Positions 17,846 through 52,733 are shown, counted from the stretch's first letter. The stretch is DNA of 64,000 nt from Candidatus Magasanikbacteria bacterium CG11_big_fil_rev_8_21_14_0_20_39_34 (GCA_002787355.1 PCWN01000008.1:69873-133872), one strand, 5' to 3'. A program made the numbers and translations. Notes: generated from the letters alone by a model not told the origin.

Positions 17846-17865
17846 CCTACAACTTTAGATCTTTT

Positions 17866-17896: not shown

Positions 17897-17914
17897 TCTC
17901 TATACTATCCCCAT

Positions 17915-18748: not shown

Positions 18749-18821
18749 AATGCAATAAATATTTTTATTTACTTCATTATTTATCTTTATTTTCTTATCT
18801 ATCAGATTTCTTACACACGAT

Positions 18822-19898
18822 ATGATTGAAGCAGCATCACTTTTTATCCTCAGTGGAATTACATTTCTTGTTCCACAGCTTCGTGCTCTTTATTTTAGAA
18901 AAGATCTAGATGAAAAAAGTCAGCCAAATACTTTATCAAACATACCCTACTTTGATTTTTTAAGAGGAATTTCTATAATTGCTGTTATTATTATTCATGT
19001 CATTTATTTTTATAAAGATTCACTTTTACTTCCAAATTTGAATACTCTTCTCGTATTTTCTCTCAACAACATACTACGATTTGCTATTCCTTTTTTTCTT
19101 ATTACTTCTGGAATTTTACTTACCCCTTTTCCCTACACAAGAAAAAATTACAAACATTTTCTTTTGAAAAAATCATTAAAGCTCCTTCCCCCCTACCTTC
19201 TTTGTTGTATCTTTATTGCATTTTATCATCATTACCCACTGGTTAAATCAATTCAACTCACCCTCACCGGTTTTATGGCTGTCCCCTACTATTTTATTTG
19301 TATTCTTTTTCAGGCATATTTTTTTTACCCCCTTCTCCTAAAATATGTAGAAAAAAAATACTTTTTGCAATTCATGTTCCTCTTGTCCATTCTTTGCTAC
19401 TGCATACCCCAAACTTGGCTTATTTGGGGATTCCCCTTTGTAGGAAGATACCTCTTCTTTTTTGCCTACGGGATAAAAATGCGAAATTATTTCCTTTTTA
19501 AAAAATTAGAAAAAAAAGAAAGCCCTTTCTGGCTTTCTTTAATACTTTTTTATTTGACACTTGCCATTGCCTTCCCCGCTTACTACTACAATGTACGTCT
19601 CATCTACGGAATTGCCCTTTTTAACATCTGTATGATATTGCAACCCTACATTAATTTGAAACATAAGCTGAACAAAATTCTTATTGCCTTTGGTAAGAAT
19701 AGTCTTTTTATTTTTCTCACCCACTTTGGACTGATCAGCTTTCTTTTTACTCTTTTAAAAAATGTTTCTCATCTTCCTCTTATCCATGCGGTCCTTATCA
19801 TCGTTCTATGTATTCCCGGAAGTTTTCTCCTGGCAATCATTTTTAAAAAGACATATCAAAAATTCTTTTTTCTTTTTACTCCAAAGAATCTTCCTTAG
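18822..19898 (+). CDS. acyltransferase family 3 (OatA-like) integral membrane protein
   Basis: About 10 TM segments. FDFLRGISIIAVIIIHV matches the conserved acyltransferase_3 N-terminal motif (LDGLRGIAAL..V..H). Confidence 0.7.
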   Translation: MIEAASLFILSGITFLVPQLRALYFRKDLDEKSQPNTLSNIPYFDFLRGISIIAVIIIHVIYFYKDSLLLPNLNTLLVFSLNNILRFAIPFFLITSGILLTPFPYTRKNYKHFLLKKSLKLLPPYLLCCIFIAFYHHYPLVKSIQLTLTGFMAVPYYFICILFQAYFFYPLLLKYVEKKYFLQFMFLLSILCYCIPQTWLIWGFPFVGRYLFFFAYGIKMRNYFLFKKLEKKESPFWLSLILFYLTLAIAFPAYYYNVRLIYGIALFNICMILQPYINLKHKLNKILIAFGKNSLFIFLTHFGLISFLFTLLKNVSHLPLIHAVLIIVLCIPGSFLLAIIFKKTYQKFFFLFTPKNLP

Positions 19899-20253
19899 CA
19901 GACGCTGAAGGTTCAATTTTGTTTTTCCCCCTTGATATTTTCAGTGCAGCATAAACAGAAAAATCCGGATAGGGTGCCCCTTCTACACGAATAACTCCCC
20001 TTTCTGGGTGAATCCCTGTAATTTTAAAGGTTCCAAGTTCTGTCTTTACAAAATATACTACCCCCTGTTCAATATTTTTGAGTAAGGTTGAAAATCTTAC
20101 TCCTGAAAGAGCCTCAAATTTTTTAAAAACGGCATTTTCATGTTCTTCACGTATTCTCTTCCCCCTTTCTGCTCTGTTTCTCATCCGAGCATCCTCTACT
20201 TCACGTGAAAGATGATCAAGCCCCTCCCCAATATTTCTTCTTTCTATAGTCAT
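19876..20253 (-). CDS. hypothetical protein
   Basis: The ORF is convergent with and slightly overlaps the acyltransferase gene. The start was chosen at MTIERR (CAT 20251-20253) to avoid overlap with the upstream phosphoglucomutase/phosphomannomutase gene. No domain recognised. Confidence 0.4.
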   Translation of the reverse strand: MTIERRNIGEGLDHLSREVEDARMRNRAERGKRIREEHENAVFKKFEALSGVRFSTLLKNIEQGVVYFVKTELGTFKITGIHPERGVIRVEGAPYPDFSVYAALKISRGKNKIEPSASAKEDSLE

Positions 20254-20260
20254 ACGATAA

Positions 20261-21679
20261 TTATAGTAGTGCTTCAACATTGACCCCATAGGTAAAATCA
20301 ATTTCCTCAATAGAGTGAAGAATATCTGAAGCCTGTTTTTTTAAGTCATTATATTGTTCTTCTGTTTTTGCTTCAAATTTTATGGTCATATACGGACCAT
20401 TTTGTGATGCACGAAAGATAAGCATCTCATTTTCTGTATCCATTCGTATCCCATCAATTTCAGTATATTTTGCATTTGGATAGAGATCCTTTACCTTTTT
20501 TGCTATTTGTTCTTTTACTACCTGAAATTTTATATCATCAGGACAACCAACTTTTATCTCTGGACTAGAAATATATTGTGGAAGCTCAGCAACAACTTCC
20601 TTCAACGTCATTTCTTTTCTCCCCAAGTATTCAAGAAGCCTCAACGCACCAATAGCGGTATCATCATGTCCAAAAAAATTATCAACAAAGAAAAAATGTC
20701 CACTTAACTCTCCACCAAAAATAGCACCAATCTCTTTTATTTTTGCTTTTATAAACGAGTGCCCAGTCATCCACATAACAGACTGTCCACCAGAAGCCTG
20801 TATGACATCTCCTACTTGTTTTGAGCATAACACATTATAAACAATTTTTGCTCCCGGAAGATACTCTAAAATATCCTTTGCATAAATAGATACTAATGTA
20901 TCATTCCACATGAGATTCCCCTCATGATCCACTACCCCCAGTCTATCTCCATCGCAGTCAAAAGAAAATCCAAGGTCAGCTCCTTCCTGTTTTACACGTG
21001 CCGCCAAACGCTCCTGAACTTCACGCTCCGTAGGATCTGGAGTACCAACCGGGAAGTTTCCATCCGGAGTAGTATTTTGTTCTATTACCTCACAGCCAAG
21101 TCTTCGAAGAATCTCTGGAATAATGGGTCCAGCATTCCCCGCAGAAGCATCCACCACAACCTTCATGGGTTTAATATTTTTAGCTTTTTTTATTACATCT
21201 TCTGCATACATCTCAAATACATCCTTTTCAATTACTTTCCCCTTTTCCTTCAAAGACATATACTCACCACTCCAAACCAGTTGTTTAAACTCATGAATCT
21301 CCTCTGTGACCATAGTCTCAGAATACCCGGTCCCAAATTTAAACCCATTATACTCTTTTGGATTGTGTGAAGCTGTAATCATGACCATTCCACGAGTTCG
21401 AAAATAATATTGGGCAAAATAGGCAACTTGACTCATCGTCATTCCTATATCATAGACAGTAATTCCTGAATCAGTGAGCCCATTTACAAATGCATCTCGA
21501 AAAGCAGGACTGGACAATCTACAGTCTCGTCCTACAACACAGTCATAGATACGTCTCCTCAACAACCAAGTAGCATATGCCCGAGCTAAAATCTCTACAT
21601 TTTCCTCCGTAAAGTCCTCTCCCACAACACCACGCATGTCATATCCTCGAAATGCATGCTCCGGTATGATTTTTTTCAT
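20261..21679 (-). CDS. phosphoglucomutase/phosphomannomutase family protein
   Basis: Active-site Ser motif ITASHNPKEYNGFKF, metal-binding DCDGDR and the C-terminal domain. Confidence 0.9.
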   Translation of the reverse strand: MKKIIPEHAFRGYDMRGVVGEDFTEENVEILARAYATWLLRRRIYDCVVGRDCRLSSPAFRDAFVNGLTDSGITVYDIGMTMSQVAYFAQYYFRTRGMVMITASHNPKEYNGFKFGTGYSETMVTEEIHEFKQLVWSGEYMSLKEKGKVIEKDVFEMYAEDVIKKAKNIKPMKVVVDASAGNAGPIIPEILRRLGCEVIEQNTTPDGNFPVGTPDPTEREVQERLAARVKQEGADLGFSFDCDGDRLGVVDHEGNLMWNDTLVSIYAKDILEYLPGAKIVYNVLCSKQVGDVIQASGGQSVMWMTGHSFIKAKIKEIGAIFGGELSGHFFFVDNFFGHDDTAIGALRLLEYLGRKEMTLKEVVAELPQYISSPEIKVGCPDDIKFQVVKEQIAKKVKDLYPNAKYTEIDGIRMDTENEMLIFRASQNGPYMTIKFEAKTEEQYNDLKKQASDILHSIEEIDFTYGVNVEALL

Positions 21680-21719
21680 AAAAGTGGTTAAATTAAACTA
21701 ATTTAATGAAAATTTTTCT

Positions 21720-21749
21720 TTGACAAAAAGCCTGCGCGTAGTATATAAT
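21720..21749 (+). promoter_or_regulatory. sigma-70-type promoter upstream of clpC
   Basis: TTGACA (21720-21725), an 18-nt spacer, then TATAAT (21744-21749). Alternatively a 16-nt spacer to TATATA. Confidence 0.5.
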
Positions 21750-21806
21750 AGACTCGTAAAAAAAACAATTTGTGCAAAAAATTTGTCCAAAAATAGCTGA
21801 AAAATT

Positions 21807-24323
21807 ATGTCAGAGCACAACAAACTATTAGACAATTTCTCCGCCCATCTCAAAAATACCATTGCTCGCGCTATCACCATAGCAGAACAGATGAATCATG
21901 CCTGTGTTGAGCCATCTCACTTGCTCCTCTCACTTTCCCAAGAAAAAGGATCTATTGGGTATGAAATTCTTGCAAAATTTCAGATAGACTCGGACAAACT
22001 CATTGATATTTTTTCATCTAAACTTGATTTCCCCATTACCCCACAAAATCTCTCAACAGACCAAAAAACAACCACACTTCCCAACCTTGATGAAAAATCA
22101 AAGGAAGTCCTTGAAAAAGCCATGGTCCTCTCCTACCGCGAATCGCACACCTACGTAGGGACTGAACACCTTCTTTTTGGGATCATATCCATCCAAGAAC
22201 CAAAGCTTCAAGCAATTTTTAAAGACCTCAAGATAACAAAAAAAACACTTAAAGACCAAGTGAATTTTATTATCCAAAGTACTAGTGCCTTTCCCACAAT
22301 AGATGATATTCATGGAATTATGGATGATATCCAAGAACTGAACCAAAATGGAGCACAAGGTCATCACTTGTTTGAACGCCCCACACAAAAATCTTCTTCC
22401 TCTGCCATAAATCAATACAGTACAATTCTGACCAACAAGGATCACCAAAAGGATATAGATCCAGTTATTGGTCGTGATAAAGAAATTGAACGTATTATTA
22501 GTATCCTGTGCAGAAGAAATAAAAACAACCCCATACTCCTTGGTGAGGCTGGTGTTGGAAAAACCGCAATAGTGGAAGGACTTTCAAAGAAAATTGCAGA
22601 AGGGAGTGTACCCGATATCCTTAAAAATAAAAAAGTTCTCTCTCTTGACCTTACCCTTTTGATTGCAGGAACTATCTACCGAGGAGAGTTTGAAGATAGA
22701 CTCAAACAAATTATCCAAGAAGTATCAGAAAACTCAAACTATATACTTTTTATTGATGAAATTCATAATATAATTGGTGCGGGATCAAATCAAGGAACCA
22801 TGGATGCCGCCAATATACTCAAGCCAGCACTTGCACGTGGAAAACTCCGATGCATTGGTGCAACAACCTTTGATGAATATGAAAAATATATTGCGTCTGA
22901 CCCAGCACTCGATAGACGTTTTCAAGCAATTCATGTAAAAGAGCCTTCTGCTGAAGAAACAAAGTCTATACTCAATGGTGTAAAAAGATATTACGAAAAT
23001 TTTCATGAGTGCCATATTGATACAGATGCTATCAATGCCGCCGTGGATCTCAGTATCCGTTATGTACACGATAATTATCTTCCAGATAAGGCCATAGATC
23101 TATTAGATGAAGCCTGTGCTTATAGAAGATCACAAAAAAAACTTTCTAAAATACAAAGAAGACAATGGGATTTACTACAAAAAGAAGAATCTCTTGAAAG
23201 AGAAAAAGAAAGAGCCATACTCAAAGAAAACTTCAAGAAAGCCACAGAAATAAAAAATGAAATTGAAAAAATAAAAAATGAAATGAAGAAGCTATCAAAA
23301 CAAAAAAAGCTTGGTCCCAAAATTCAAATTTCAAAAAATGACATAGCCTACGTTCTATCACAAAAGACAAAGATAGACATAAATGTACTTCTCCAGTCAC
23401 AGTGGGAGAATCTTCAACGGCTCAAGAAAGAACTCTCCAAACATATCCTGGGACAAAACCAAGTAATCGAAAATATTGTTGAAACACTTATCCAATCAAA
23501 TTTGGGGATGAAAAATCCAGAAAAACCACAAGCGTCTCTCCTTTTTGCCGGCCCAAGTGGCGTTGGAAAAACATACCTTTCCCAACTCCTTGCAGAACAC
23601 CTCTATCACGATCGTTCCGCCCTTATTCGCTTGAATATGAGTGAGTTTTCTGAATCGCATGGAGTATCAAAACTTCTTGGTTCACCTGCTGGATATGTGG
23701 GATTTAAAGGACGAAATCATTTTCTCGAACAAGTGAAACGGAGGCCCCATTCTATTCTTTTATTTGATGAATTTGATAAAGCCCATGCGGATGTCCGCAA
23801 ACTTCTGCTACAAATTCTTGACGAAGGAACATTGACCGATGCGCAAGGGAAAAAAATCACTTTTAAAAATGCGATTATAATTATTACAACGAGTGTCGGT
23901 GCACAACTTTTTGAAACTTCCAGTATTGGTTTTGATAACAAAGAACTAGGAACAAAACAATACTCATCAAAAATTCAATCGGAAACCAATGATAAATTAA
24001 AAGAATTTTTTGGTGCTGAGCTTTTGGGACGCATTGATAAGATCTGCTTGTTTCATCCACTCGATGCACAAACGATAAAAGGCATTGTTGAGATAAAACT
24101 TGCTGAAATCAACAAAAGACTTCAGGAAAAATTCAAATCAAAAGTAAAAGCAGACAAGCAAGCACTTTCAGCTATTGTTCATGATGCCTACAACAAACAT
24201 ATGGGGGCAAGAAATATTGATAATGTATTACAAAATATTCTTGCACAGACTTTAAAATTTCCACTCGATCAAGAAAAAATTCTTACCCTCACAAAAAAAT
24301 CGGACCACTATGAGCTTATCTGA
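21807..24323 (+). CDS. clpC: Clp/Hsp100 AAA+ chaperone (ATP-binding subunit ClpC-like)
   Basis: Clp N-domain repeats. Two AAA modules (GEAGVGKTAIVEGL; GPSGVGKTYLSQ). A short coiled-coil middle domain. Sensor and RxxR motifs present. Confidence 0.9.
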   Translation: MSEHNKLLDNFSAHLKNTIARAITIAEQMNHACVEPSHLLLSLSQEKGSIGYEILAKFQIDSDKLIDIFSSKLDFPITPQNLSTDQKTTTLPNLDEKSKEVLEKAMVLSYRESHTYVGTEHLLFGIISIQEPKLQAIFKDLKITKKTLKDQVNFIIQSTSAFPTIDDIHGIMDDIQELNQNGAQGHHLFERPTQKSSSSAINQYSTILTNKDHQKDIDPVIGRDKEIERIISILCRRNKNNPILLGEAGVGKTAIVEGLSKKIAEGSVPDILKNKKVLSLDLTLLIAGTIYRGEFEDRLKQIIQEVSENSNYILFIDEIHNIIGAGSNQGTMDAANILKPALARGKLRCIGATTFDEYEKYIASDPALDRRFQAIHVKEPSAEETKSILNGVKRYYENFHECHIDTDAINAAVDLSIRYVHDNYLPDKAIDLLDEACAYRRSQKKLSKIQRRQWDLLQKEESLEREKERAILKENFKKATEIKNEIEKIKNEMKKLSKQKKLGPKIQISKNDIAYVLSQKTKIDINVLLQSQWENLQRLKKELSKHILGQNQVIENIVETLIQSNLGMKNPEKPQASLLFAGPSGVGKTYLSQLLAEHLYHDRSALIRLNMSEFSESHGVSKLLGSPAGYVGFKGRNHFLEQVKRRPHSILLFDEFDKAHADVRKLLLQILDEGTLTDAQGKKITFKNAIIIITTSVGAQLFETSSIGFDNKELGTKQYSSKIQSETNDKLKEFFGAELLGRIDKICLFHPLDAQTIKGIVEIKLAEINKRLQEKFKSKVKADKQALSAIVHDAYNKHMGARNIDNVLQNILAQTLKFPLDQEKILTLTKKSDHYELI

Positions 24324-24663
24324 AAATGAAAAAAATAAAATAGTAGCTCTCCAAGTAGCAAAGACTCGAGCCATACAAAAGAATCGGGTTCTTGATACTG
24401 TACGTGAAAAACAAATAAAAAAAGAGCTTATCTATTACAAGCAAAAACTTTCTGAGTCTTGCAATCAAAATGATTCTTCAAAATCATTTGAAATTTTAGA
24501 AAAACTCATACAACTGCAGGGTGAACTTCTTGAGCTTATCTTACACAAAATCCAAAACAGATACGGCTATGTAAGTGACGCCATAACACAAAAACTTACA
24601 AAAATATTTATAAGGGACAGTCATGAACTTTCAAAAAATGTTCTGACACATTTTTATGGCTAA
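24310..24663 (+). CDS. hypothetical coiled-coil protein
   Basis: 117-aa ORF that overlaps the clpC stop by 14 nt and the next ORF start by 8 nt (translational coupling). Confidence 0.45.
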   Translation: MSLSENEKNKIVALQVAKTRAIQKNRVLDTVREKQIKKELIYYKQKLSESCNQNDSSKSFEILEKLIQLQGELLELILHKIQNRYGYVSDAITQKLTKIFIRDSHELSKNVLTHFYG

Positions 24664-25816
24664 CTCCACTCCAGCACTAAAAACGCAAACTTCCAAACAA
24701 ATTGCCGGTCTCATTAAACAGACGGCTCTTGATGCTATGGTTTCATCAAATGCAGTCCCCTCTTCACAGGCAAAACAAATGGCCGATAAAATAGAAAATG
24801 AAGTGATACAAAATGTTGAGGGTGCGGTTGAAAAAGCCATTGACCAAATAGTTGAAAATTTTGGAAAAGAATTGGATTCTGCAAATGAAAATATTGATGC
24901 TCATCCCGAGGATATTCCCCCTCTTGAAACTCAAGAAGAACTTGGTGATTCTGCTCCAAAAGAAAATATTGCTGGATCAGAAGAACAACCTCCATCAGAA
25001 GAACAAAAGACAGAAAGACCTAAAGGGTCCGCAGCCCTTGGTGGAGAAAAATATTGGCAACAAATGGCCGATTCGCTCAAAGATGAAGACGAAGCGGAAA
25101 AACCTTATGAACCTTTCTCCGAAGAATCCGGGGAAAATACAGAAGAACCCGAAGAACCAACTCCTGAAGAGGAAACAGAACAAATTGAAAGACCAAAGGG
25201 TTCTGCATCCACGGGAGGAGATGAGTATTGGCAACAAATGGCTGATGCCCTCGCACAAGAAGAAGAAAATCAACAAAATGAAAATGAGGAAAAACCATCT
25301 TCTGAGAATGAGGATGGTACTGCCGACGAAGAAGATGCACAAAAAAAAGCAAAAGAGATAAAAGATGCCGCATCTGAAAAAATAAATCAAAAAGAACAGG
25401 AAAAAAGAGCCCTTGTAAAAGACAGAAATGATATTGAAGCCAAAATCACCCCAACCAAGAGAAAAATACGTTGGGAACTTGCTTTGATTACCGCACGTGG
25501 CATTGTCATATTTGTGGCTGTAATTGGAATTCTTATTGGACTCGTACTTCTTATCTTTGGAATTGGAATGGCTATTTTAGGTTTCTGTGGAGAGTATATT
25601 GCAAGAATGTCTGTAAACATTGGCCTAAGTTTGCAAAAAATAGTAGAATATAAAGGAGAAATAGCTAAATTTGAAAAAGACATAGAAACTCTAGATCAAC
25701 GTATTAAAAACATAGATCGAATGATTCAACTGATCCAAAGAAATGCCCAACGAGAAAGTAAACAAGTTTTTCAACGTTACCTTTTAACACAAAAAAACGC
25801 ATATGGACGAAAATAA
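24656..25816 (+). CDS. acidic Glu/Pro-rich repeat protein with C-terminal TM hairpin and coiled coil
   Basis: Two copies of ERPKGSA..GG.(K/E)YWQQMAD(S/A)L spaced 58 aa apart. Their DNA repeats start near 25010 and 25184. Followed by the hydrophobic stretch GIVIFVAVIGILIGLVLLIFGIGMAILGF and a heptad-like C-terminus. Confidence 0.6.
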   Translation: MANSTPALKTQTSKQIAGLIKQTALDAMVSSNAVPSSQAKQMADKIENEVIQNVEGAVEKAIDQIVENFGKELDSANENIDAHPEDIPPLETQEELGDSAPKENIAGSEEQPPSEEQKTERPKGSAALGGEKYWQQMADSLKDEDEAEKPYEPFSEESGENTEEPEEPTPEEETEQIERPKGSASTGGDEYWQQMADALAQEEENQQNENEEKPSSENEDGTADEEDAQKKAKEIKDAASEKINQKEQEKRALVKDRNDIEAKITPTKRKIRWELALITARGIVIFVAVIGILIGLVLLIFGIGMAILGFCGEYIARMSVNIGLSLQKIVEYKGEIAKFEKDIETLDQRIKNIDRMIQLIQRNAQRESKQVFQRYLLTQKNAYGRK

Positions 25817-27038
25817 AAAACGCATCATTTTCATAATAGGTTTTGTGTTCATGACTTTGGTTTTAGGTTATGCCCTTTATAAAGTATTTTTTCAAAAGGG
25901 AACACAAGAAGAACCACCTGTTAATCTTGGACTCATAGAACAAGGGGCCTTTCCTTCTTCAGGACAAACAACCACAACAAATGGACGTGTCGTACCTGGA
26001 ACCGGTGTTCTTCCCTCTTCACAAGAATCCGTATCTACTAATATCCTTACTCAAAAAGACAGACTCCTCCAAGAAAGTCCTACACTTCAAGTAACTGAAG
26101 AACGAATCAACAATGTAGCCCTCGGAGCAAATGGGAATGTAAGTTTTTATAGCCCTCAAGATGGAAAATTTTATAGACTTCAGGATGATGGCACTATACA
26201 AAGTATCTCAGACAAAATTTTTTATAATGTTGACAAAGTTACCTGGGCTAAAAAAGATGATGAAGCAATACTCCAATATCCCGATGGATCCAACATTTAC
26301 TATAATTTTGATACCCAAGAACAAGCAACCCTTCCCAAATATTGGGATGACTTTTCTTTCTCCGCAAAAGGTGATCAAATCGCCGCGAAAAGTTTAGGGT
26401 TTTCTCCAGAAAACAGATGGCTCGTGGCATCAAGCCCAAATGGGAAAAATACCAAATTTATTGAACCGTTGGGAGATAATGCGGATGAAGTCATCGTAAA
26501 TTGGTCCCCCAATGAACAAGTACTAGCGTTTTCCAAAACGGGTCAAGACTTAGGCTCAGACCGGCAAGAAATCCTCTTTGTAGGCGCAAATCAAGAAAAT
26601 TTTAACTCCACAGTAGTTGAGGGACGAGGATTTGAACCTCTTTGGTCTCCAAGTGGAGAAAAACTTTTATATAGTGTTTATAGCGCAAACAGCCAATTTA
26701 AACCAGAACTCTGGATTGTAAATGGAGCCCCGGGGTCTATCGGGAGTGGAAGAAAAGCATTAAAAATTAACACCTGGGCAAACAAATGTGCATTTGAAAA
26801 TGAACGCTTTATTTATTGTGCAGTACCAGTATCTCTTGATCAAGGTGCTGGCTTTGAACCAAGTATTGCAGATAATATTTCTGATCAGGTTTTCAAAATA
26901 GATACACAAACCGGTGTAAAAACGGAGATACCCATTGATGGTTATCACACCATTGATACTCTTATCATAGATAAACAACACAAACAAATTTTCTTTACTG
27001 ATAAAGTAAACTCAGGATTATTCAAAATACCTCTATGA
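25803..27038 (+). CDS. membrane-anchored protein with TolB/PD40-like beta-propeller repeats
   Basis: N-terminal TM (IIFIIGFVFMTLVLGYALY). Repeated W-S-P-(D/N/S)-G blades (VNWSPNEQVLAFS, PLWSPSGEKLLYSV, WLVASSPNGKN). Confidence 0.55.
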   Translation: MDENKKRIIFIIGFVFMTLVLGYALYKVFFQKGTQEEPPVNLGLIEQGAFPSSGQTTTTNGRVVPGTGVLPSSQESVSTNILTQKDRLLQESPTLQVTEERINNVALGANGNVSFYSPQDGKFYRLQDDGTIQSISDKIFYNVDKVTWAKKDDEAILQYPDGSNIYYNFDTQEQATLPKYWDDFSFSAKGDQIAAKSLGFSPENRWLVASSPNGKNTKFIEPLGDNADEVIVNWSPNEQVLAFSKTGQDLGSDRQEILFVGANQENFNSTVVEGRGFEPLWSPSGEKLLYSVYSANSQFKPELWIVNGAPGSIGSGRKALKINTWANKCAFENERFIYCAVPVSLDQGAGFEPSIADNISDQVFKIDTQTGVKTEIPIDGYHTIDTLIIDKQHKQIFFTDKVNSGLFKIPL

Positions 27039-27679
27039 TAAAACCAAGACACCTTGTTGTAATATTTATACCAGCCATTATTCTCATTATTTGGATACTG
27101 TATGGTTTTCTTTCTAAAAATTACCAAGACGCAGTTAAATTAAAAGAAATTTATGATCGGGATAATAGCCTTGATCTCATCCCTATTCTTCCCGGTGATC
27201 CACTCATTGGAAACCCAAGAGCGGCCACCAATATCATTGTATTTGAAGATTTTGGCTGTGATGGTTGTGCAGCTCAAACGGCACTTCTGGACCAGCTTTT
27301 GGAAAAGTACCCCGATAAATTTAATATTATTTGGAAAGGACTTCCAGTAACACATTTTCCCGATTCATCAGAAGAAGTTCACTCTTACGCGTATTGTGCC
27401 AATAAACAAGGAAGATTCTCAGCATTCAAAGATATAGCATTTGCAAATAATAAAAATTTATCAACTGAGAATCTAAAAATAATTAGTGATACTATTCATC
27501 TTGATCCAAAAGAACTTGATGATTGTCTTCATTCTGAATTTCCAAAAGAAAAAATTAAACAAGTACAAGACTTAGCCTACACACTCAATATTGCATCCGT
27601 TCCAACAATTTTTATAGACAATAAAGAGGTCCTTCCTCAAGATTCTCTTGAAGGTTGGGAAGCCTATTTTGAATTGTAA
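27035..27679 (+). CDS. DsbA-like thioredoxin-fold thiol:disulfide oxidoreductase, membrane-anchored
   Basis: N-terminal TM. The CxxC motif FGCDGCAAQ is in a thioredoxin-like context and the gene is DsbA-sized. It overlaps both neighbours by a few nt. Confidence 0.7.
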   Translation: MIKPRHLVVIFIPAIILIIWILYGFLSKNYQDAVKLKEIYDRDNSLDLIPILPGDPLIGNPRAATNIIVFEDFGCDGCAAQTALLDQLLEKYPDKFNIIWKGLPVTHFPDSSEEVHSYAYCANKQGRFSAFKDIAFANNKNLSTENLKIISDTIHLDPKELDDCLHSEFPKEKIKQVQDLAYTLNIASVPTIFIDNKEVLPQDSLEGWEAYFEL

Positions 27680-27681
27680 TT

Positions 27682-29571
27682 ATGACAAAAAAATTATTTT
27701 TTTTCTTATCCATCCTTGGTATTACCATAATGCCAAGTTTTGTATTTGCACAAGATTCCATACAAAAAATTATTGATGCGGCACAAGATACTACAAGCGA
27801 TCTTACCAATCAGTATGGGGAGAGTGTCCACCAAGAAACCATAGATGTTATACGGACACCCCAACTTCGCATCACTATACCTGGATTAAATTTTGCCAAT
27901 GTTGACGATATCAACAAACTGGTCAAAAGCCAAAACGGCGAAGCCGGAGAAAAATATATTGTCATCCCCTTTCTCGGTGATTACATGGTAGTGATGTACC
28001 GCTATGCAATCATAGCCATTGGGATCCTTGCCGTGGTATCTATTATTTATTCTGGAGTTCAATGGATGATTCCTGGAAATATTATTACCAAAGATGACTC
28101 TTCAGTAAATCAGGCAAAAGAACGAATTGCACGAACGCTCATTGGTCTGGGGCTTGCTGTGGGATCCTATACCATTCTCTATGCTATAAATCCAGCACTA
28201 ACTCAATTCAAAAATTTAAAACTTCTCTACGTTCCAGCACAAGATGTGAACCTCATTGTTATGGACAAAGGAACTCCAGGTGATTTTTCATCGGTGTCCT
28301 ATGCTTCTGGAGTTGGAAAAAATAGAAAAATAGACAATACAGAGTTTGATGACATGTTCAAAGCTTTTGCAAACTGTTTTAATCTTGACTGGAGAGTACT
28401 CAAGGGTATTGCATATCAAGAATCACGCTTGAATGAAGGAAGCACCAACAAATATGGTTTTAAAGGGCTTTTTCAGACCCGTGAAGACTTTTGTCCAAGC
28501 TATCTCTCTGGCTACCCTGCTTGGTCTGCCTATTGTAAAACAGGACTTCATAATGCATGGATTAATACAGCAGCGGGGGTAAACTCTATTTATCAAGCAC
28601 TGGAAAAAGTTCGCGCTGAATGCTCAGATAAATTAAATACATTTGATACATTTACCGCAGTATACATTGCACATAACTCCGGAAATTTTGGGCTTGCAAA
28701 AACATTGGAAAATAGTAATTGCCAAGGATGGCCCGCTATGCGTGATGGTCTAGAAAAATTTTGGAAGGAATATAAAAAGCGACCAAAAAATTGGAGTCCC
28801 GGTTTTGGTACAAGACGTGCTGATTATGCGCGTAAAACCGCACAGGTATTTATTGACATTGGAGTTGTAGATCCAAAAAATACAAGCCAAAATGGAAATG
28901 CCCAGTGTCCCCTCAACTTTTCTCCGGAACAAGTAGTGCCAGAACTTTCTGGAAAAGTACCTGAAAATATAAATGCAAGTTTTACCTGTTCACCTACCTT
29001 TGACGGAAAATCCATTATTGCCATTGGAGACTCTATTACCTACAATGCAGAATCGTTTGCCAAGCAAATACGATCGAACTGTCCTAAAATTAATGTCACT
29101 ATTAATGCACGTCCAGGACGACCAACTTCAGAAATGCTCCAAGAAGCAAATAAAATTGATTTTTCCACCTATGATTATTTGATCATTCTGGGTGGTGTAA
29201 ATGACATTGGAAATGCAACAGGCGTACGAAATAACCTTACTGCCATTTACCAAAAAGCAAAAGAAGGCAATACAAAAGTCATAGCACTTACCATTACCCC
29301 TTGGAAGGGATACAGTACCTATAGTGATAAAAATGGAACCAACACAAATGATATCAATAGATGGATACGTCAAAAGGCCCCTACTTCGGATGGAAACCTT
29401 ATTGACTATGCCATCGATTCATATGCACTCTTGGAAGATCCAAGTAACCCTGGCGCTATGCGTACCCTCTTTTGGAGCCATGGAGATCCACTTCACCCCA
29501 ACGCCACAGCACACAAACTCATAGCACAAACTATTGCACAACAAGTATTTGGTGGTAAGTTAATTAAGTAA
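27682..29571 (+). CDS. secreted, Cys-rich lytic-transglycosylase-like + SGNH/GDSL hydrolase fusion with internal two-helix membrane module
   Basis: Signal peptide. Residues about 100-180 form a hydrophobic hairpin (IIAIGILAVVSIIYSGVQWM…LIGLGLAVGSYTILYAINP). The SLT-like motif is …IAYQESRLNEG…GLFQ. The C-terminal SGNH blocks are IAIGDSITYN, ILGGVNDIGN and GDPLHPN (DxxH). Confidence 0.7.
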   Translation: MTKKLFFFLSILGITIMPSFVFAQDSIQKIIDAAQDTTSDLTNQYGESVHQETIDVIRTPQLRITIPGLNFANVDDINKLVKSQNGEAGEKYIVIPFLGDYMVVMYRYAIIAIGILAVVSIIYSGVQWMIPGNIITKDDSSVNQAKERIARTLIGLGLAVGSYTILYAINPALTQFKNLKLLYVPAQDVNLIVMDKGTPGDFSSVSYASGVGKNRKIDNTEFDDMFKAFANCFNLDWRVLKGIAYQESRLNEGSTNKYGFKGLFQTREDFCPSYLSGYPAWSAYCKTGLHNAWINTAAGVNSIYQALEKVRAECSDKLNTFDTFTAVYIAHNSGNFGLAKTLENSNCQGWPAMRDGLEKFWKEYKKRPKNWSPGFGTRRADYARKTAQVFIDIGVVDPKNTSQNGNAQCPLNFSPEQVVPELSGKVPENINASFTCSPTFDGKSIIAIGDSITYNAESFAKQIRSNCPKINVTINARPGRPTSEMLQEANKIDFSTYDYLIILGGVNDIGNATGVRNNLTAIYQKAKEGNTKVIALTITPWKGYSTYSDKNGTNTNDINRWIRQKAPTSDGNLIDYAIDSYALLEDPSNPGAMRTLFWSHGDPLHPNATAHKLIAQTIAQQVFGGKLIK

Positions 29572-29572
29572 A

Positions 29573-32290
29573 ATGTTTTTTCTTCAAAAAAAATATACCT
29601 GGAAATTTGCAATTGGATTCCTCATGGTTTTTTCCTTTACTTTTTTTTATCCCCCACATCCAGTTTTTGCTCTGGTTAAAGAGAGCAGCCCCATTGCAGG
29701 AGTAGATCTCTATTCGTTTAAATCTGATTATGGCTGCAGCAGTAAAAATCCAAAAGAACAATCAGAACACTTCATCATTGTTCCCTCCGGAAGTAGCAAA
29801 ATCAATAGAACCTATATTTATTTTCATGGTTTATCCAACCCTCCCGAACATACCACAAAAGAGTTAATGTGCCATGGGTATCTTAACCTCTGTGATTCTG
29901 CTGCACAATTGCAAACACTTGGCCTCAATGTTGCCATTATTGGCGCACGACTCAATAAGGCCGGATCAACACGTGAATTTAGAGATTTTAATACTGCGGA
30001 ACTCAATTGTTTCCTCAATAAGGCATCTCAGGAACTCACATCCTTGGGAAGAGGTTATGGGTCAGACTTAATTCTTGTAGGTCATAGCGCTGGTGGACGC
30101 TCGATAAAAGAAGCTCTCAACAGTGACATACATTTCAATGGCTTGACCCCAAGCATGTGTATTTTCCTTGATCCCTGTTATGGTGACTGGTGTGATGTTG
30201 CCGTCAAATCAAATAAATGTGGTAGCTATGTTTTTTATGGTGCAGGTGGTCCGGGTGAGACCATAGATGCTACCAATAAAGCAATCAAACTGGCTGCAAA
30301 CCCGCAATCCATTCGCCTGGTGCAGATGCCCAATGGTTTCCACTCAAAAATACCAAGACTTTGTTTTACTGAACACGTGGATGAAAAAGCATGCCAAGGA
30401 AATGGAACTGTCATTCAAGAAGGAATCCTCAGTTCCGTTATACCTATCGTAGCTGGCGATTCAGATAAAATCATTCCTCAGGCTACCAGTGATAGCTATG
30501 AAAAACTCGTTGAAAATATTCTTTCGAAAACCAAACTAGAAACGGAAACACCAGGCTATAACCCAAATGTAAATATAGAAGATAAAGTTACCGTAAATCA
30601 AACGAATGGAAAACTTTACTTAAATATAAATACACTTTCAGAATATATTGGATGGCTCTATCAATATAGTCTTATTGCAATAACTATAATTGCTGTAGTT
30701 ATTGTCATCTATTCTGGAGTCCAGTGGATGGTTTCTGGTGGAAATAGTGCCACTATTAGTGAAGCCAAAAAAAGAATCGGTCAAACATTTGTAGCCTTGC
30801 TCTTGGCACTTGGATCCTATACCATTCTCTATGCAATTAATCCAAAAACAACAAAATTTGGTCAGCTTAATATTCTCGTTTTTCAGGCAGAAAATACTCC
30901 AATGGAAAATGAATCATTAAATGCAGACGCCTATAATTCCGTTAACTTTAACGCAAACGATCTCCTTGGGAATATCAAAAAACCAAACTGGGATGCTAAA
31001 ACCTTTGATTGTTCAAAGAAAGATTCTTACTCTCCTGCAGGTGTTCTCCCCAGCAATCAAACAATTACTTATACCTGTGATGGAATGGAAGGAAATGTTA
31101 CCAGCATTCCACAAATGAAAGTTCCACTTTGTAGAGCAGCAGAAATTGCAAAGAAAAATGGATATACCCTTCAGGTAAGAAGTTCCTATCGACCATTTGA
31201 AATACAGGTAAAATTATGGTGTGAAGACACACGACCTCCTGAGATACGAAGAAAGTTTATCGCAACACCTGGATTTTCCAATCATGGTCATGGTGTGGCA
31301 ATAGATGTTTTCCTCTATAAAAATGGAAAACAACTCACTCTTTATGGAAGTTCAGGACAATGTAAGACAAGTCCCCGTTTTGTAAAAGAAATTGCAGATA
31401 TATTTTACCTTGCAGACCCAAACTTTGTTCGACTGGAAACGGAAATTTGGCACTTTGAATATGGGACCATGGGTACCTCTGCAAGAAATCGCTATGATAC
31501 CCTTCCACAGACCTGTACGGGAAAGCCTTCTGGAGTAAGTAATGTTAAAGCAGAAGGAGGAACTTCCCCCATCTCCAATGTTGGTGCAGCCAGTAATGCA
31601 AATATTATTGCTCCAGCCCAAAGTGGACAAAGCCCGGCAGCACAATCAAACCAATGTACATTTACCGAAAAACGTTGGAATACCAATACTCGCACAACCG
31701 CACTTTTCAGAAAAGAGACCAATGCCCCATATAATACCATTATCAGCCAGGATAAAAGCTACGTCAGCAAATCTGACCCAAGATGTAGTGTCTGTGAACA
31801 AGATCAGGTTTTGTTTGATCCAAGCAGCGTTGGAATCCGCGGCGTATCAAGCGTTCGTGTCTGTTGGGCATATGTTGATCAAATCAAACAAATGTTGAAA
31901 ACAATAGTACAAAATAACCAACTGGAGATAACCAGTCTCGTAGGATACCGACCAAACCGGACGGTTGGAGCAGTCAATGCAGATGGATTTCGAACCGGCG
32001 CTGGCGGACACTTTTATGGTATGGCCATAGACATCAATGCAGAGTATAATGGCCTCTACAGTGGATGTTCTGGTTTTGATCCAATAGCTCATCCTCTTGG
32101 ACCTATAACGTGTTCAGGACCTTCAAATGGGGGTCCCTGGAATCCTCCAGCAAATCCAAATAAAACTATTTACTACAATAGCCCCGTGTACCGCCTATTC
32201 ACCTCCAATGGATGGAAGTGGGGTGCAACTAATATTTCCGGAAGGACACGAGACTTTATGCACTTCTCCATTCATGATGACAGTCAGTAA
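29573..32290 (+). CDS. secreted, Cys-rich alpha/beta-hydrolase + two M15 (VanY/LAS-type) peptidase domains with the same internal two-helix membrane module
   Basis: Signal peptide. GxSxG esterase motif LILVGHSAGG. Residues about 355-435 are paralogous to the hairpin of the upstream gene (LIAITIIAVVIVIYSGVQWM…LLLALGSYTILYAINP), with near-identical nucleotides around 30706-30740 and 30810-30848. Two M15 motifs are present: SSYRPFEIQVKLW…GFSNHGHGVAIDV and VGYRPNRT…GGHFYGMAIDIN. Confidence 0.7.
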   Translation: MFFLQKKYTWKFAIGFLMVFSFTFFYPPHPVFALVKESSPIAGVDLYSFKSDYGCSSKNPKEQSEHFIIVPSGSSKINRTYIYFHGLSNPPEHTTKELMCHGYLNLCDSAAQLQTLGLNVAIIGARLNKAGSTREFRDFNTAELNCFLNKASQELTSLGRGYGSDLILVGHSAGGRSIKEALNSDIHFNGLTPSMCIFLDPCYGDWCDVAVKSNKCGSYVFYGAGGPGETIDATNKAIKLAANPQSIRLVQMPNGFHSKIPRLCFTEHVDEKACQGNGTVIQEGILSSVIPIVAGDSDKIIPQATSDSYEKLVENILSKTKLETETPGYNPNVNIEDKVTVNQTNGKLYLNINTLSEYIGWLYQYSLIAITIIAVVIVIYSGVQWMVSGGNSATISEAKKRIGQTFVALLLALGSYTILYAINPKTTKFGQLNILVFQAENTPMENESLNADAYNSVNFNANDLLGNIKKPNWDAKTFDCSKKDSYSPAGVLPSNQTITYTCDGMEGNVTSIPQMKVPLCRAAEIAKKNGYTLQVRSSYRPFEIQVKLWCEDTRPPEIRRKFIATPGFSNHGHGVAIDVFLYKNGKQLTLYGSSGQCKTSPRFVKEIADIFYLADPNFVRLETEIWHFEYGTMGTSARNRYDTLPQTCTGKPSGVSNVKAEGGTSPISNVGAASNANIIAPAQSGQSPAAQSNQCTFTEKRWNTNTRTTALFRKETNAPYNTIISQDKSYVSKSDPRCSVCEQDQVLFDPSSVGIRGVSSVRVCWAYVDQIKQMLKTIVQNNQLEITSLVGYRPNRTVGAVNADGFRTGAGGHFYGMAIDINAEYNGLYSGCSGFDPIAHPLGPITCSGPSNGGPWNPPANPNKTIYYNSPVYRLFTSNGWKWGATNISGRTRDFMHFSIHDDSQ

Positions 32291-32299
32291 CATTATTTT

Positions 32300-33640
32300 A
32301 TGAGTAAAATGGAAACTATTTTTTCTTGTACACACTGTGATGCACAATACAAAAAATGGGTTGGACGATGCCTTGAATGCGGTAAATGGGGAACCGTAGA
32401 AGAAAAACATCTTTCCAAAAAAGAAGAAGAAAAAAGTAAAACACCACGAGCCTCGGCAACTATGGAAGTTGCCTCTTCTGTCAAAATGAAAAATTTTGAG
32501 AGAATCCAAACCAATATCTCAGAGTTTGATAGAACGGTTGGATTTGGTATTGTTCCTGGAAGTTTTATTTTGTTGGGTGGTGAACCTGGAATAGGAAAAT
32601 CAACTCTTTGCGCACAAATAGCAAGTTCTGTACCAAACTCACTGTACTTCTCGGCAGAAGAGTCTATCCAGCAAGTGGGTATGCGCATACAACGCCTTAA
32701 CCTCAATGGAGATACATCCAAATTATCAAATGAAACCTGTGTAGAAATCATTGCAAGTACGATCCTCAATGAAAAACCTTCACTTGCCATTATTGACTCA
32801 ATACAAACAATTTATTCTGAGGAAGTTTCCGGTGAACCGGGATCTATTTCTCAAGTGCGTGCTTCTACGGTAAAACTTCTTGAAGTATGCAAGTCCTCGG
32901 GAACAAGTGTTATTATCATAGGACATGTTACCAAAGATGGTGCCGTTGCCGGTCCACGTACACTTGAACATCTTGTTGATACTGTTTTGTACCTTGAGGG
33001 TGACCGATACCACCAGATGAGAATACTTCGTACCGTCAAAAATCGTTTCGGCTCCACTGATGAAATTGGAATCTTTGAAATGGAAGAAAATGGATTACAA
33101 GGAGTGCAAAACCCATCACAAAATCTTCTTTTGGAACGAACCATGAATCTTTCAGGATCAGTTATTACCTGTCTTCTTGAAGGAACAAGGCCTCTTCTAG
33201 TAGAAGTGCAAGCACTTGTAAATAAAACAGCTTTTGGGTATCCATTACGGAAATCAAGTGGTTTTGATATAAATCGTCTCCATGTGCTTCTTGCTGTACT
33301 GCAAAAAAGAACCAACCTCCCGTTTGGTGGCTATGATGTTCATGTAAATATTGTTGGAGGAATCAAGGCAAATGAACCTGCCGTAGATCTTGCCGTTTGT
33401 CTTGCGCTTGCCAGTTCATTTAAAGATAAAGCTCTTGGTAACGATCTTGTTGTCTTTGGAGAAGTTGGTCTTGGCGGTGAAGTACGCAGTACCTCACATA
33501 TTCAAAAACGTCTAAAAGAGTGTGAACACCTCGGGATGAAGCGAATCATCACTCATCTTCCAGCAAAATTAAAAATAAAAGATACCGGTGTAAATATAAC
33601 CAATGTAGAAAATATTAATGAACTTATAAAACTTACATAG
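32300..33640 (+). CDS. radA: DNA repair protein RadA (Sms)
   Basis: N-terminal C4 zinc finger (CTHCDAQYKKWVGRCLECGKWG). RecA-like ATPase with GGEPGIGKSTL and KNRFG. Lon-like C-terminal domain. Confidence 0.9.
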   Translation: MSKMETIFSCTHCDAQYKKWVGRCLECGKWGTVEEKHLSKKEEEKSKTPRASATMEVASSVKMKNFERIQTNISEFDRTVGFGIVPGSFILLGGEPGIGKSTLCAQIASSVPNSLYFSAEESIQQVGMRIQRLNLNGDTSKLSNETCVEIIASTILNEKPSLAIIDSIQTIYSEEVSGEPGSISQVRASTVKLLEVCKSSGTSVIIIGHVTKDGAVAGPRTLEHLVDTVLYLEGDRYHQMRILRTVKNRFGSTDEIGIFEMEENGLQGVQNPSQNLLLERTMNLSGSVITCLLEGTRPLLVEVQALVNKTAFGYPLRKSSGFDINRLHVLLAVLQKRTNLPFGGYDVHVNIVGGIKANEPAVDLAVCLALASSFKDKALGNDLVVFGEVGLGGEVRSTSHIQKRLKECEHLGMKRIITHLPAKLKIKDTGVNITNVENINELIKLT

Positions 33641-33645
33641 TTAAT

Positions 33646-35076
33646 TTATTCAGAAAGCTTTTCTCCTCTACTTCCACTTTCGATATATCCACTCTGTGTC
33701 ATTTGAACAAATTCAGCATTTTCGTGCATCTCGTCCATATTTTTTGCCCCACAGTAACTCATAGCACTCTGCAAACCTTTTGCGAGAGACTTTACAATAT
33801 CTTCTACAGAGCCGGAGTAATCCACCAATGTAGAAACACCTTCTACAAAGACATCGAGGCGCTCTTTAAGATGCCTTCCACGTTTTAACTCCTGACGACT
33901 ATGATTACTTTCATAGGAAGCACTTCCATAGTATTTTTTGTATCGTTTTCCATTTTTTAAAATAATCATTCCGGGGGATTCATCACAACCCACAAAAAGT
34001 CTTCCGGAATATATACTTGAAGCTCCGGCGGCAATTGCCTTGGCAATATCTCCTGGAAACTTCATTCCCCCATCGGCAATAACTGGTACACCGTAATCTT
34101 TAGCTACACTTGCTACATTCATTATGGCTGTTAACTGAGGCACTCCAGCCCCCGAGATAATACGAGTGGTACACACCGGTGAGGGTCCAATTCCAACCTT
34201 CAGTCCATCTGCTCCTGCCTCGATAAGATCATGTGCGGCTGCTTTTGTGGCAATATTCCCCACCATAAGGTCAATAGATGGAAAAAAAGATTTTAGTTCT
34301 CTTACTCTTTGAATAACAAAATCGGAATGCGCATGTGCAACATCAAGCACTAATGTATCACACCCAACTCGAATAAGTGCTTCTGCACGTTCATGCGTAT
34401 CTTTTACCCCAAGTGCTGCCCCAACGAGTAATCTTCCTTTCTTATCTCTACTTGCTCTTGGCCAGTATTCAAGTTTTTGGATATCCTGTGTTGTCACCAA
34501 CCCACGAACAATTCCATCTTCTAAAAGTGGAAGTTTTTCAATTCTGTGTTTGTGGAGTATCCCCTTTGCCGTGTCCAAACTAATACCATATTCAGCAGTT
34601 ACTAAACGTTCTCTTGGAGTCATGACCTCTACAATGCTTTTTTTATAGTCCTTTTCAAACAAATAATCCCGAGAAGTAAATATACCCTCCAGATGATCCC
34701 CCGACATTACCAATAAACTTGTAACCCCCTCCTTTTGCATGATATCAATAGCTTGTCCTATAGAAATATTGCTGCTTACCGAAACGGGTTCCTCGATTAC
34801 GTAACTCGTACTCTTCTTCACTGACTTAAGTTCCTGAACTTGTTCTTCAATAGTTCCAAACTGATGAATGACGCCTATACCCCCCTCTCGTGCCATAGCA
34901 ATGGCCATTTTGTGTTCCGTCACAGATGCCATGTTTGCAGACACAAACGGTGTGTGCAACATTATGTTTTTCGTCCACATTCCGGATATATCAGCTTCAC
35001 TGCGTGACTGAAGTGGCGTTCTTTTAGGAACTAAAAGTACATCAGAAAAGGTGAGTGCCAAAGGGATATCTTGCAT
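33646..35076 (-). CDS. guaB: inosine-5'-monophosphate dehydrogenase
   Basis: TIM-barrel motifs (GVIHQ, catalytic-loop [28 protein letters not shown]). An inserted CBS pair is present. Confidence 0.9.
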
Positions 35077-35140
35077 AGGCTCTATTTAATGATGAATTCC
35101 GGGTAGAATTATAGCACCTCCTTTCAAATTCGCAAATGTG

Positions 35141-52732: not shown

Positions 52733-52733
52733 A

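Follow-up and report, generated by a model that had tools for sequence, protein, structure and literature searches.

Why do six genes for envelope proteins lie between clpC and radA in the genome of Candidatus Magasanikbacteria bacterium CG11_big_fil_rev_8_21_14_0_20_39_34? The organism is an uncultured, ultra-small groundwater bacterium of the class ABY1 in the Patescibacteria, a group that also goes by the name of candidate phyla radiation (CPR). Much of the diversity of bacteria is found in the Patescibacteria, which live attached to other cells. We studied the locus in a stretch of 64,000 nucleotides (nt), called the window below; all coordinates are counted from its first letter. A first-pass annotation had suggested that the whole block from clpC to radA may be one envelope-spanning machine. 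We arrive at a different answer, which we hold to be probable by a modest measure: in the Magasanikbacteria/ABY1 lineage a cassette of six envelope genes has come to lie between clpC and radA; its core is an oxidase together with variable, Sec-exported and disulfide-stabilised exoproteins, here two hairpin-tethered wall hydrolases. The eight genes are listed below; the six in the middle are shortened to B-G in the text, and TM stands for transmembrane.

21807..24323, + strand: clpC, a Clp/Hsp100 AAA+ unfoldase with Clp_N, two AAA modules, a UVR motif and an IGF tripeptide (Pfam AAA_2, 1e-51)
24310..24663, + strand: B117, a small protein with no signal peptide, no TM segment and a conserved KKQIKEELxYFKQKL motif
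24656..25816, + strand: C386, with an N-terminal half that is acidic and probably disordered, followed by a TM hairpin that has a Lys-rich helix on either side
25803..27038, + strand: D411, a predicted extracytoplasmic beta-propeller of about seven blades behind a TM anchor (aa 3-29) and a disordered linker (aa 41-79), with a Cys329/Cys339 pair
27035..27679, + strand: E214, a putative thiol-disulfide oxidoreductase of DsbA type, anchored in the membrane, which has CDGC at aa 75-78 (nt 27257-27268), VPT as cis-Pro loop and Cys121/164 as second cysteine pair
27682..29571, + strand: F629, a signal peptide, a pilin-hairpin module, SLT and an SGNH/GDSL esterase (Pfam SLT, Lipase_GDSL_2, T4SS_pilin)
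29573..32290, + strand: G905, a signal peptide, a cutinase/esterase-like domain, a pilin-hairpin module, VanY/M15B and Peptidase_M15_4
32300..33640, + strand: radA (sms), DNA repair and recombination (TIGR00416, 4e-157, above cut-off), the final gene of the same-strand run

The starts of these open reading frames (ORFs), their common strand and their gaps or overlaps of at most 14 nt agree with what the first-pass annotation had given. The junctions are -14 nt for clpC/B, -8 for B/C, -14 for C/D, -4 for D/E (ATGA), +2 for E/F, +1 for F/G and +9 for G/radA. For the 45 same-strand junctions of the window the median gap is 52 nt, and 14 are no longer than 14 nt. Half of these 14 form the consecutive clpC-radA run, the tightest in the window, while the rest of the window has 7 in 38.

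The signals for transcription point in the same direction. A site that could serve as promoter is found ahead of clpC:

21720..21749, + strand: promoter-like site TTGACA-18-TATAAT, 58 nt upstream of the clpC start, by consensus match only

This is the single 12/12 sigma-70 consensus within 20000-38000, and as a match in sequence it marks a putative promoter. No terminator-like site is present on the + strand at any of the clpC-radA junctions, and promoter-like sites are not enriched (42 found, 52 expected). As far as can be read from the sequence, then, independent promoters or terminators do not break up the run. Downstream of radA the IMPDH gene converges at a distance of 5 nt, and upstream of clpC there is a divergent phosphoglucomutase gene. 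The tight gaps, the lone consensus promoter, the lack of terminators at the junctions and the convergent gene at the 3' end make the block compatible with one transcription unit of 11.9 kb, as which the eight genes are probably co-transcribed. No CtsR box or CIRCE element was obvious by eye in the clpC leader, which is not a rigorous test, and scans for Rfam families and tRNAs gave nothing within the block.

The outer two genes have a history of their own. ClpC carries matches to NCBIfam models of the ClpB/ClpA type that stay under the equivalog cut-offs, and the closest RadA proteins are from Magasanikbacteria (61-65% identity). In seven loci of Lachnospiraceae type and one of Dehalococcoidia, clpC precedes radA at a distance of 250-1260 nt, and the space between the two holds nothing comparable. 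This adjacency in other phyla indicates that ClpC and RadA are the ancestral frame and not parts of the cassette, and that the six genes in the middle were inserted, in this lineage specifically, into a pair that is old.

Is the inserted block kept in relatives? These were found using RadA as an unbiased anchor, with one genome per species; one of the contigs, L001, is too short to show the block. Additional contigs (L081, L083, L084, L085, L087 and L089) were reached through protein look-ups, while those of P0127 and P0242 are too short for their surroundings to be seen. The order clpC, a protein of about 110 amino acids (aa), an acidic hairpin protein, a TM-propeller, a TM-anchored DsbA-like protein, one to four hairpin proteins and radA is present in L002-L009, L085 and L087, except that L004 begins at the propeller and that L005 and L009 have no ~110-aa protein. 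It is partly seen in L010, L011, L017, L081, L083, L084 and L089. In all, the gene order recurs in about 15 related contigs.

The closest full relative, L085, carries all eight genes, at junctions of +2, -11, +2, -4, +2, -4 and +16 nt. The identities to it are 50% for ClpC, 36% for B, 26% for C, 54% for D, 42.5% for E, 39% for F, 50% for G and 68% for RadA. Some relatives have lost components: L010 (Falkowbacteria) has no DsbA gene and L011 neither B nor C, while the truncated contig L017 shows D, E, the following genes and radA.

The junction behind E is consistently short and measures 1-19 nt in 10 of 10 loci. The slot that follows, the cargo, contains one to four genes whose domains vary. 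In L081, a Magasanikbacteria scaffold of 1.17 Mb, it encodes two giant secreted proteins with DUF4215/LVIVD repeats, of 1624 aa (12078-16952; 98 Cys, 6.0%) and 1260 aa (17118-20900; 92 Cys, 7.3%), and after them a hairpin-SLT protein. Further, the regions around the block gain and lose genes: between htpX and clpC there are eight genes here and none in L010 and L011, and IMPDH may be present or absent. That D, E and the cargo stay contiguous while the flanks change counts against pure inheritance of the order.

The description of E as a TM-anchored DsbA-like protein with a CxxC in a thioredoxin fold holds well. It matches Pfam Thioredoxin_4 with 68.6 bits (E=1e-18, cut-off 23.2) and DSBA with 35.4 bits (cut-off 25.6), and the nearest solved structures are Pseudomonas aeruginosa DsbA2 (4n30), 3gyk, Wolbachia alpha-DsbA1 (3f4s) and BdbD (3eu3). 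In alignment, CDGC falls on CPFC of 4n30 and CPYC of 3gyk, VPT falls on TPT of 4n30, and Cys121 and Cys164 coincide with cysteines in 4n30. The cis-proline is assigned from this alignment, and its cis conformation is predicted. The CxxC is kept in 10 of 11 loci (L009 has NNRD), and the proline and the second cysteine pair in all 11. A hydrophobic helix after a basic N-terminus in E214 and all its homologues places the protein outside the cytoplasm, by the hydropathy rule only. From these features E would oxidise its substrates as a DsbA-type oxidase. We found nothing relevant in the literature on DsbA or disulfide formation in CPR bacteria. The copy without CxxC in L009 (7398-8060) keeps the second cysteine pair and the proline loop, and recalls the CxxC-less chaperones of thioredoxin fold.

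Both proteins directly behind E are multi-domain hydrolases, as had been proposed, and their domains are recognised as follows.

27829..28251, + strand: F629 hairpin module, aa 50-190
28354..28716, + strand: F629 predicted lytic transglycosylase SLT, aa 225-345, 24.9 bits (cut-off 21.3)
29014..29529, + strand: F629 predicted SGNH/GDSL esterase, aa 445-616, Lipase_GDSL_2 with 57 bits (cut-off 32.9)
29690..30442, + strand: G905 predicted alpha/beta hydrolase, aa 40-290, with GHSAG170
30470..30892, + strand: G905 hairpin module, aa 300-440
31139..31462, + strand: G905 predicted VanY/M15B peptidase, aa 523-630, 41.1 bits
32009..32269, + strand: G905 predicted Peptidase_M15_4, aa 813-899, 43.6 bits (cut-off 25)

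In F the SLT motifs of family 1 lytic transglycosylases are intact (QES247, GLFQ262, AHNSG330), and so are those of the SGNH domain (block I GDS449, block V DPLH602). In G the zinc-ligand motifs of both M15 domains are intact, SNHGHGVAID569 with EIWH624 and HFYGMAID813 with DFMH894. The N-terminal domain of G has no sequence match in Pfam or the Protein Data Bank (PDB), where the search returned noise only. In the AlphaFold2 model (pLDDT, the predicted local accuracy score, 85-95) it is an alpha/beta hydrolase, with GHSAG170 between a strand (165-171) and a helix (174-183) in the manner of a nucleophile elbow, and the best Foldseek matches are cutinases, PETases and esterases (E about 2e-6). 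The esterase call rests on the fold and the GxSxG nucleophile, with the Asp and His of the triad not located. Taken together, F and G are probably peptidoglycan-degrading enzymes.

Since both proteins combine an esterase with a glycan- or peptide-cleaving domain, this suggests that ester substituents are removed prior to cleavage. O-acetyl groups on N-acetylmuramic acid (MurNAc) block lytic transglycosylases, and SGNH esterases of the Ape1 type remove such groups. A gene for a membrane acyltransferase (Acyl_transf_3; 18822-19898, + strand) is located two genes upstream of clpC, and likewise in L085 (1-827); it could be a wall O-acylation partner of the esterase domains of F and G.

G905 is 100% identical to the public entry COV59_04230, and a word-indexed homologue search with its full length returned only G itself and one relative of 47% identity. 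For F the public gene model (P0123) has 613 aa and starts at Met17, which gives an E/F gap of 50 nt and loses the signal peptide; for this reason an exact look-up of F629 came back empty. The ATG at 27682 yields the signal peptide MTKKLFFFLSILGITIMPSFVFA/QDS (27682-27730) and an E/F junction of 2 nt. We prefer it because it supplies the signal peptide, and the public model appears to begin 16 codons too late.

What ties F and G together is a module of about 140 aa, overlooked in the first-pass annotation, which is 42% identical between them. Its core is formed by two long hydrophobic helices, at 353-387 and 392-422 in the AlphaFold2 model of G, with a short basic loop between them that reads AKERI in F and AKKRI in G. 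Among the positional homologues from related loci, 14 of 17 match Pfam PF18895 (T4SS_pilin, the VirB2-like family of Patescibacteria; T4SS stands for type IV secretion system), four of them above threshold and with up to 31.9 bits.

The family was searched exhaustively with a profile made from the two modules of the window, against cluster representatives at 50% identity. This gave 13,443 representatives at E<=1e-3 and 2,920 at E<=1e-10, and PF18895 is recognised in 70 of the top 91, with E values down to 1.8e-25. A word-indexed search with the hairpin module had given no matches. Judged at the profile level, the hairpin of F and G is homologous to PF18895 and the VirB2-like pilins.

Few members of the family are small. 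The best 150 have a median length of 506 aa with just three below 250 aa, and the best hits are mostly fusions of 350-940 aa; F and G, at 629 and 905 aa, are likewise not small stand-alone pilins. The domains fused to the hairpin in the best 91 are almost all peptidoglycan hydrolases: SLT (18), VanY (14), Amidase_2 (9), GDSL (8), M15_4 (7), Peptidase_C39_2 (6), M23 (6), M15 (5), NlpC/P60 (2) and CHAP (2). The available text of PMC12102498, PMC10633639 and PMC12857230 treats VirB1-like hydrolases as entities separate from pilins and does not describe a hairpin-hydrolase fusion. As far as checked, the fusion family and the conserved D-E-cargo cassette are a new arrangement of known parts. Hairpins are found in a different setting as well: in L088 (1-3669) one copy opens a protein of 554 aa and three tandem copies are present in one of 461 aa, on a contig with no propeller or DsbA gene. 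The contig of P0134 shows a hairpin array without D or E.

If E is an oxidase for the proteins encoded behind it, these should contain disulfides. The two hydrolases had been described as strikingly rich in cysteine, with more than 15 and more than 25 residues in CxxC-like pairs, and these counts were too high. F has 8 cysteines and no CxxC (1.27% against a window background of 0.87%, p=0.19), while G has 22 and a single CxxC at aa 738-741 (2.43% against 0.87%, p=2.5e-5). All cysteines of F and G are in the predicted extracytoplasmic domains and none in signal peptides or hairpins. To study the pairing we aligned G with 24 homologues and read gain and loss patterns in 16 of them, which gave five pairs in the esterase domain.

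G C55/C146: both replaced in the same three homologues
G C100/C107: both replaced in the same two homologues
G C202/C207: both replaced in the same three homologues
G C196/C216: both present in the window protein alone
G C264/C274: kept together in 15 of 16 homologues, with Ala at C274 in one

This co-variation of ten cysteines in five pairs indicates disulfides. Between the window and L085, 8 of 8 cysteines are conserved in F, 19 of 22 in G, 2 of 2 in D and 4 of 4 in E, as against 3 of 6 in the cytoplasmic ClpC and 6 of 10 in RadA, as one would expect if the exported proteins hold structural disulfides. In general, the proteins behind E have 7-34 cysteines each (mean about 2.7%), and the best 150 members of the hairpin family average 2.27%. 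A bias towards even numbers of cysteines in these 150 is not significant (81 even, 69 odd). The proposed coupling between the DsbA-like protein and the hydrolases thus gains support from the short junction behind E, the cysteine content of the cargo, the two giant proteins of L081 and the paired cysteines of G, even though the original counts do not stand.

The propeller D411 is the best-conserved protein of the cassette, with about 50% identity among more than 100 listed homologues, all of them annotated as hypothetical; it is itself 100% identical to the public entry COV59_04215 from a Crystal Geyser genome bin. The AlphaFold2 model (pLDDT 86) has the TM helix, the linker and about seven blades. 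Cys329 and Cys339, its only cysteines, are invariant and on adjacent strands. It had been called a TM-anchored propeller of the PD40/TolB type with a scaffolding role. The anchor and the propeller were found, and the likeness to TolB was rejected: the PD40 match is below threshold (18.8 against 20.9 bits in Pfam), there are about seven blades and not six, and a TM helix with linker takes the place of the N-terminal domain of TolB. The best fold matches are propellers of S9 peptidases, WD40 proteins and tricorn, with TolB absent from the top 60. Since D is conserved, extracytoplasmic and adjacent, a role as scaffold or regulator is plausible, although not on the ground of a relation to TolB.

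Of the remaining two proteins, B117 has positional homologues of 107-120 aa in L002, L003, L006, L007, L008 and L085; it reaches threshold in no Pfam or NCBIfam family, and weak matches to DnaB and two other families were discarded. C386 is, as had been described, an acidic repeat protein with a TM hairpin: Asp and Glu make up 31% of aa 60-235, two repeats of 20 aa (ERPKGSAxxGGxxYWQQMADxL) start at aa 120 and aa 178, and the hairpin is at about aa 272-315. With no signal peptide and by the positive-inside rule, it is predicted to be almost entirely cytoplasmic. Its architecture recurs in relatives while the sequence diverges, with 14-20% identity over the C-terminal 170 aa in nine loci and not one invariant column in the C-terminal alignment of the nine positional homologues. 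No Pfam or NCBIfam family reaches threshold here either, and weak matches to DUF2207_C, SseC and MakA were discarded.

From these parts we propose the following course of events. The cassette would ride on the clpC promoter, and its working core would be D-E-cargo, that is, an anchored propeller, an anchored thiol oxidase and then a slot for one to four secreted Cys-rich proteins. Sec would export F and G. The hairpin would stay in the membrane with its basic loop on the cytoplasmic side, so that the catalytic domains on both sides of the hairpin would lie outside the cell. E would oxidise the paired cysteines of F and G to disulfides, and probably also the invariant pair of D. Tethered in this way, F would cut the wall with its lytic transglycosylase while its SGNH esterase carries out the de-O-acetylation of MurNAc that lytic transglycosylases need, and G would bring together a cutinase-like esterase and two M15 zinc peptidases, by which stem peptides are trimmed or cleaved. 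We infer co-transcription, the action of E on F, G and D, the membrane topology, the enzyme activities and any role of D, B and C.

Several observations weigh against an oxidase-and-cargo cassette. No DsbB or VKOR that could re-oxidise E was found among the 48 ORFs of the window scanned with Pfam or in the 10-kb flanks of the relatives. F is not enriched in cysteine. L009 keeps a hydrolase with 16 cysteines behind an E without CxxC, and L010 one with 17 cysteines and no E gene, from which it follows that E is not strictly required locally or that another oxidase exists. The hairpin of F scores 21.4 bits with PF18895, under the gathering score of 26.6, and G has just a weak match to DUF6112 and does not reach the gathering score of PF18895. 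Further, we can only infer a tie of B, C and D to the enzymes. Finally, the same relatives are collinear with the window from lemA-htpX, across clpC and radA, to recG and further on, and such far-reaching collinearity means that the conserved order is partly inheritance and not selection alone. The last point leads to an explanation that we consider rather unlikely but the strongest of the rivals: in a compact genome with a collinear region the genes would be neighbours by descent, E would be the general and perhaps only DsbA for all exported proteins, including type IV pilins and competence proteins, and F and G would be ordinary autolysins. The clpC-radA adjacency is indeed older than the cassette, the rest of the window is housekeeping, and components are lost one by one (B and C in L011, E in L010, the CxxC in L009). 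BdbD of Bacillus subtilis, among the nearest solved relatives of E, serves competence proteins. Descent does not account well, however, for D-E-cargo staying contiguous throughout between changing flanks, for an E-cargo junction that is consistently at most 19 nt, for a slot that always holds unusually Cys-rich exoproteins, non-hydrolases included, or for seven consecutive junctions of at most 14 nt where the rest of the window has so few.

The likeness of the hairpin to pilins opens another explanation, which we regard as doubtful. F and G would be borne on a conjugative-type pilus and shown outside it to breach the wall of a host, with D and E as assembly factors like TrbB and TraF. The module is homologous to PF18895 and weakly to TrbC/VirB2, its basic inter-helix loop resembles that of VirB2-type pilins in sequence and in pilus structures, the family is very large with cargo domains that vary as in host-interaction proteins, and a comparison of the window with L085 shows faster evolution of F and G than of D or RadA. 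According to the available portions of PMC12102498, PMC10633639 and PMC12857230, small VirB2-like pilin arrays are widespread in Patescibacteria and essential in Southlakia, and T4SS loci of ABY1 commonly contain recG and radA (PMC12102498). In the F system, the thioredoxin-like TrbB is a disulfide isomerase of the T4SS (PMC11315126). Against all this, Pfam scans of the 48 window ORFs found no VirB4, VirD4, VirB6 or other T4SS gene and no type IV pilus gene, and the 10-kb flanks of the related loci inspected hold no T4SS component. Pilins are small, while in F and G the hairpin is extended by 300-500 aa, on one side or on both, and no immunity gene accompanies the hydrolases. An extended form of the idea seems to us equally doubtful: VirB2-type hairpins would be general carriers of disulfide-stabilised wall hydrolases, D-E-cargo would assemble enzyme-decorated filaments or arrays that open host walls, and E would be re-oxidised independently of quinones, possibly via D. 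Least of all do we expect the single envelope-spanning machine, with ClpC as motor, B and C as couplers, D as scaffold, E, F and G as outer parts and RadA for incoming DNA. Stop and start codons overlap from clpC through E, B and C directly follow clpC whenever they are present, and C is a membrane hairpin with large cytoplasmic parts. But ClpC has standard housekeeping features including IGF and adjoins radA without a cassette in other phyla, B and C show little conservation (26-36% identity) and L011 does without them, nothing that forms a channel or resembles a secretin is encoded, and C has almost no extracytoplasmic part with which to contact D-G. The collinearity from lemA-htpX to recG, the varying number of genes in the slot and the losses in L009-L011 speak against it too.

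If the locus is an inserted oxidase-and-cargo cassette, whose wall is cut? We lean slightly towards remodelling of the cell's own wall or surface organelles, on the ground of the fixed housekeeping locus and the lack of an immunity gene. If it is its own wall that the cell cuts, this could help it to grow or let pili or secretion systems pass through. A host wall is favoured instead by the pilin scaffold, by how large and variable the family is, and by the faster evolution of F.

A few observations concern the surroundings. Genes for proteostasis and membrane quality control are unusually dense around the block, with rseP, lemA and htpX before clpC (9942-12790) and dnaJ, dnaK, hsp20, grpE, hrcA and a gene for an SPFH protein downstream at 46662-53477. 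At the start of the window smpB (861-1313, + strand) is directly followed by a tmRNA gene (1380-1775, + strand; Rfam RF00023, 117.9 bits, full length), which ARAGORN did not report. A tRNA-Asp gene (3564-3638, + strand) overlaps the 5' end of an ORF with TTG start and an HD_4 domain (3522-4052), so the true start of the latter must be further downstream. Four ORFs of 153-365 aa have no Pfam match (17915-18748 on the + strand; 37499-38083, 47794-48891 and 5355-5816 on the - strand). Of these, the ORF of 194 aa adjoining recG has homologues in the same position in L003, L006, L011 and L017.

The proteins of the cassette are presently annotated as hypothetical. A pilin hairpin underlies a very large family of fusions with wall hydrolases (the 13,443 clusters at 50% identity), and in one major lineage such hairpin-hydrolases are encoded directly behind a DsbA-type oxidase at a fixed site, which makes them concrete candidates for enzymes at the surface of an epibiont. 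A redox question is raised as well, namely how an extracytoplasmic DsbA is kept oxidised in an organism without a respiratory chain. Respiratory quinones are generally lacking in Patescibacteria, as the available part of PMC12857230 states for Saccharibacteria.

Compared with known systems, E214 shares with DsbA2 (4n30), alpha-DsbA1 (3f4s) and BdbD (3eu3) the thioredoxin fold with helical insert, the CxxC and the cis-Pro loop. DsbA2 and alpha-DsbA1 possess a second disulfide of structural kind, and the extra cysteine pair of E214 aligns with cysteines of 4n30. Unlike the solved DsbAs it keeps an uncleaved N-terminal TM anchor, has CDGC as active site and is seen without a DsbB/VKOR partner in the window.

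The frame around the cassette recalls the clpC operon of B. subtilis, which has the order ctsR-mcsA-mcsB-clpC-radA-disA. In both, clpC and radA share a strand, clpC being the upstream gene. In the window they are 8 kb apart with six envelope genes in between, and ctsR, mcsA and mcsB are absent upstream, where the neighbouring gene is that for phosphoglucomutase; the Firmicute type of operon is therefore kept in its clpC-then-radA order only.

For the propeller the nearest analogy is DsbI of Campylobacter and Helicobacter, described in the available text of PMC4597128 as a DsbB-like membrane domain fused to a beta-propeller. In both cases a membrane-anchored extracytoplasmic propeller is genetically linked to a Dsb oxidoreductase, but this is analogy only: D411 has one TM helix, no DsbB-like domain of four helices and no CxxC, and its cysteines look structural.

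The F plasmid offers a parallel for the pairing of thioredoxin-fold proteins with pilin-related envelope proteins. TraF of its T4SS is a CxxC-less thioredoxin-like protein, to which the CxxC-less copy in L009 is a counterpart, as E is to TrbB. The context of a T4SS is missing here, and the likeness rests on the shared fold.

The hydrolases also recall PrgK of pCF10 and TraG of pIP501, VirB1-like multi-domain wall hydrolases of Gram-positive conjugation (summarised in the available part of PMC12102498). These are also membrane-anchored, combine SLT with a second wall-hydrolase domain and are believed to make a local opening in the wall for a surface machine. F and G, by contrast, are anchored by a pilin-type hairpin and not by one N-terminal helix; in place of CHAP/LytM the partner domains are an SGNH esterase in one and M15 peptidases with a cutinase-like esterase in the other, and the genes are in a chromosomal housekeeping locus and not beside virB4.

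In the hairpin itself F and G resemble the VirB2/TrbC pilins and the PF18895 arrays of the same phylum (PMC12102498, PMC10633639), with a signal peptide, two hydrophobic helices and a short basic loop, although no T4SS genes are near. The Pfam model of PF18895 covers 71 positions, to which the module of about 140 aa in F and G adds a pre-hairpin element, IPGL...IPFLGEY. The pilins are proteins of about 100-150 aa; in F and G the hairpin is flanked by enzyme domains, on one side or on both.

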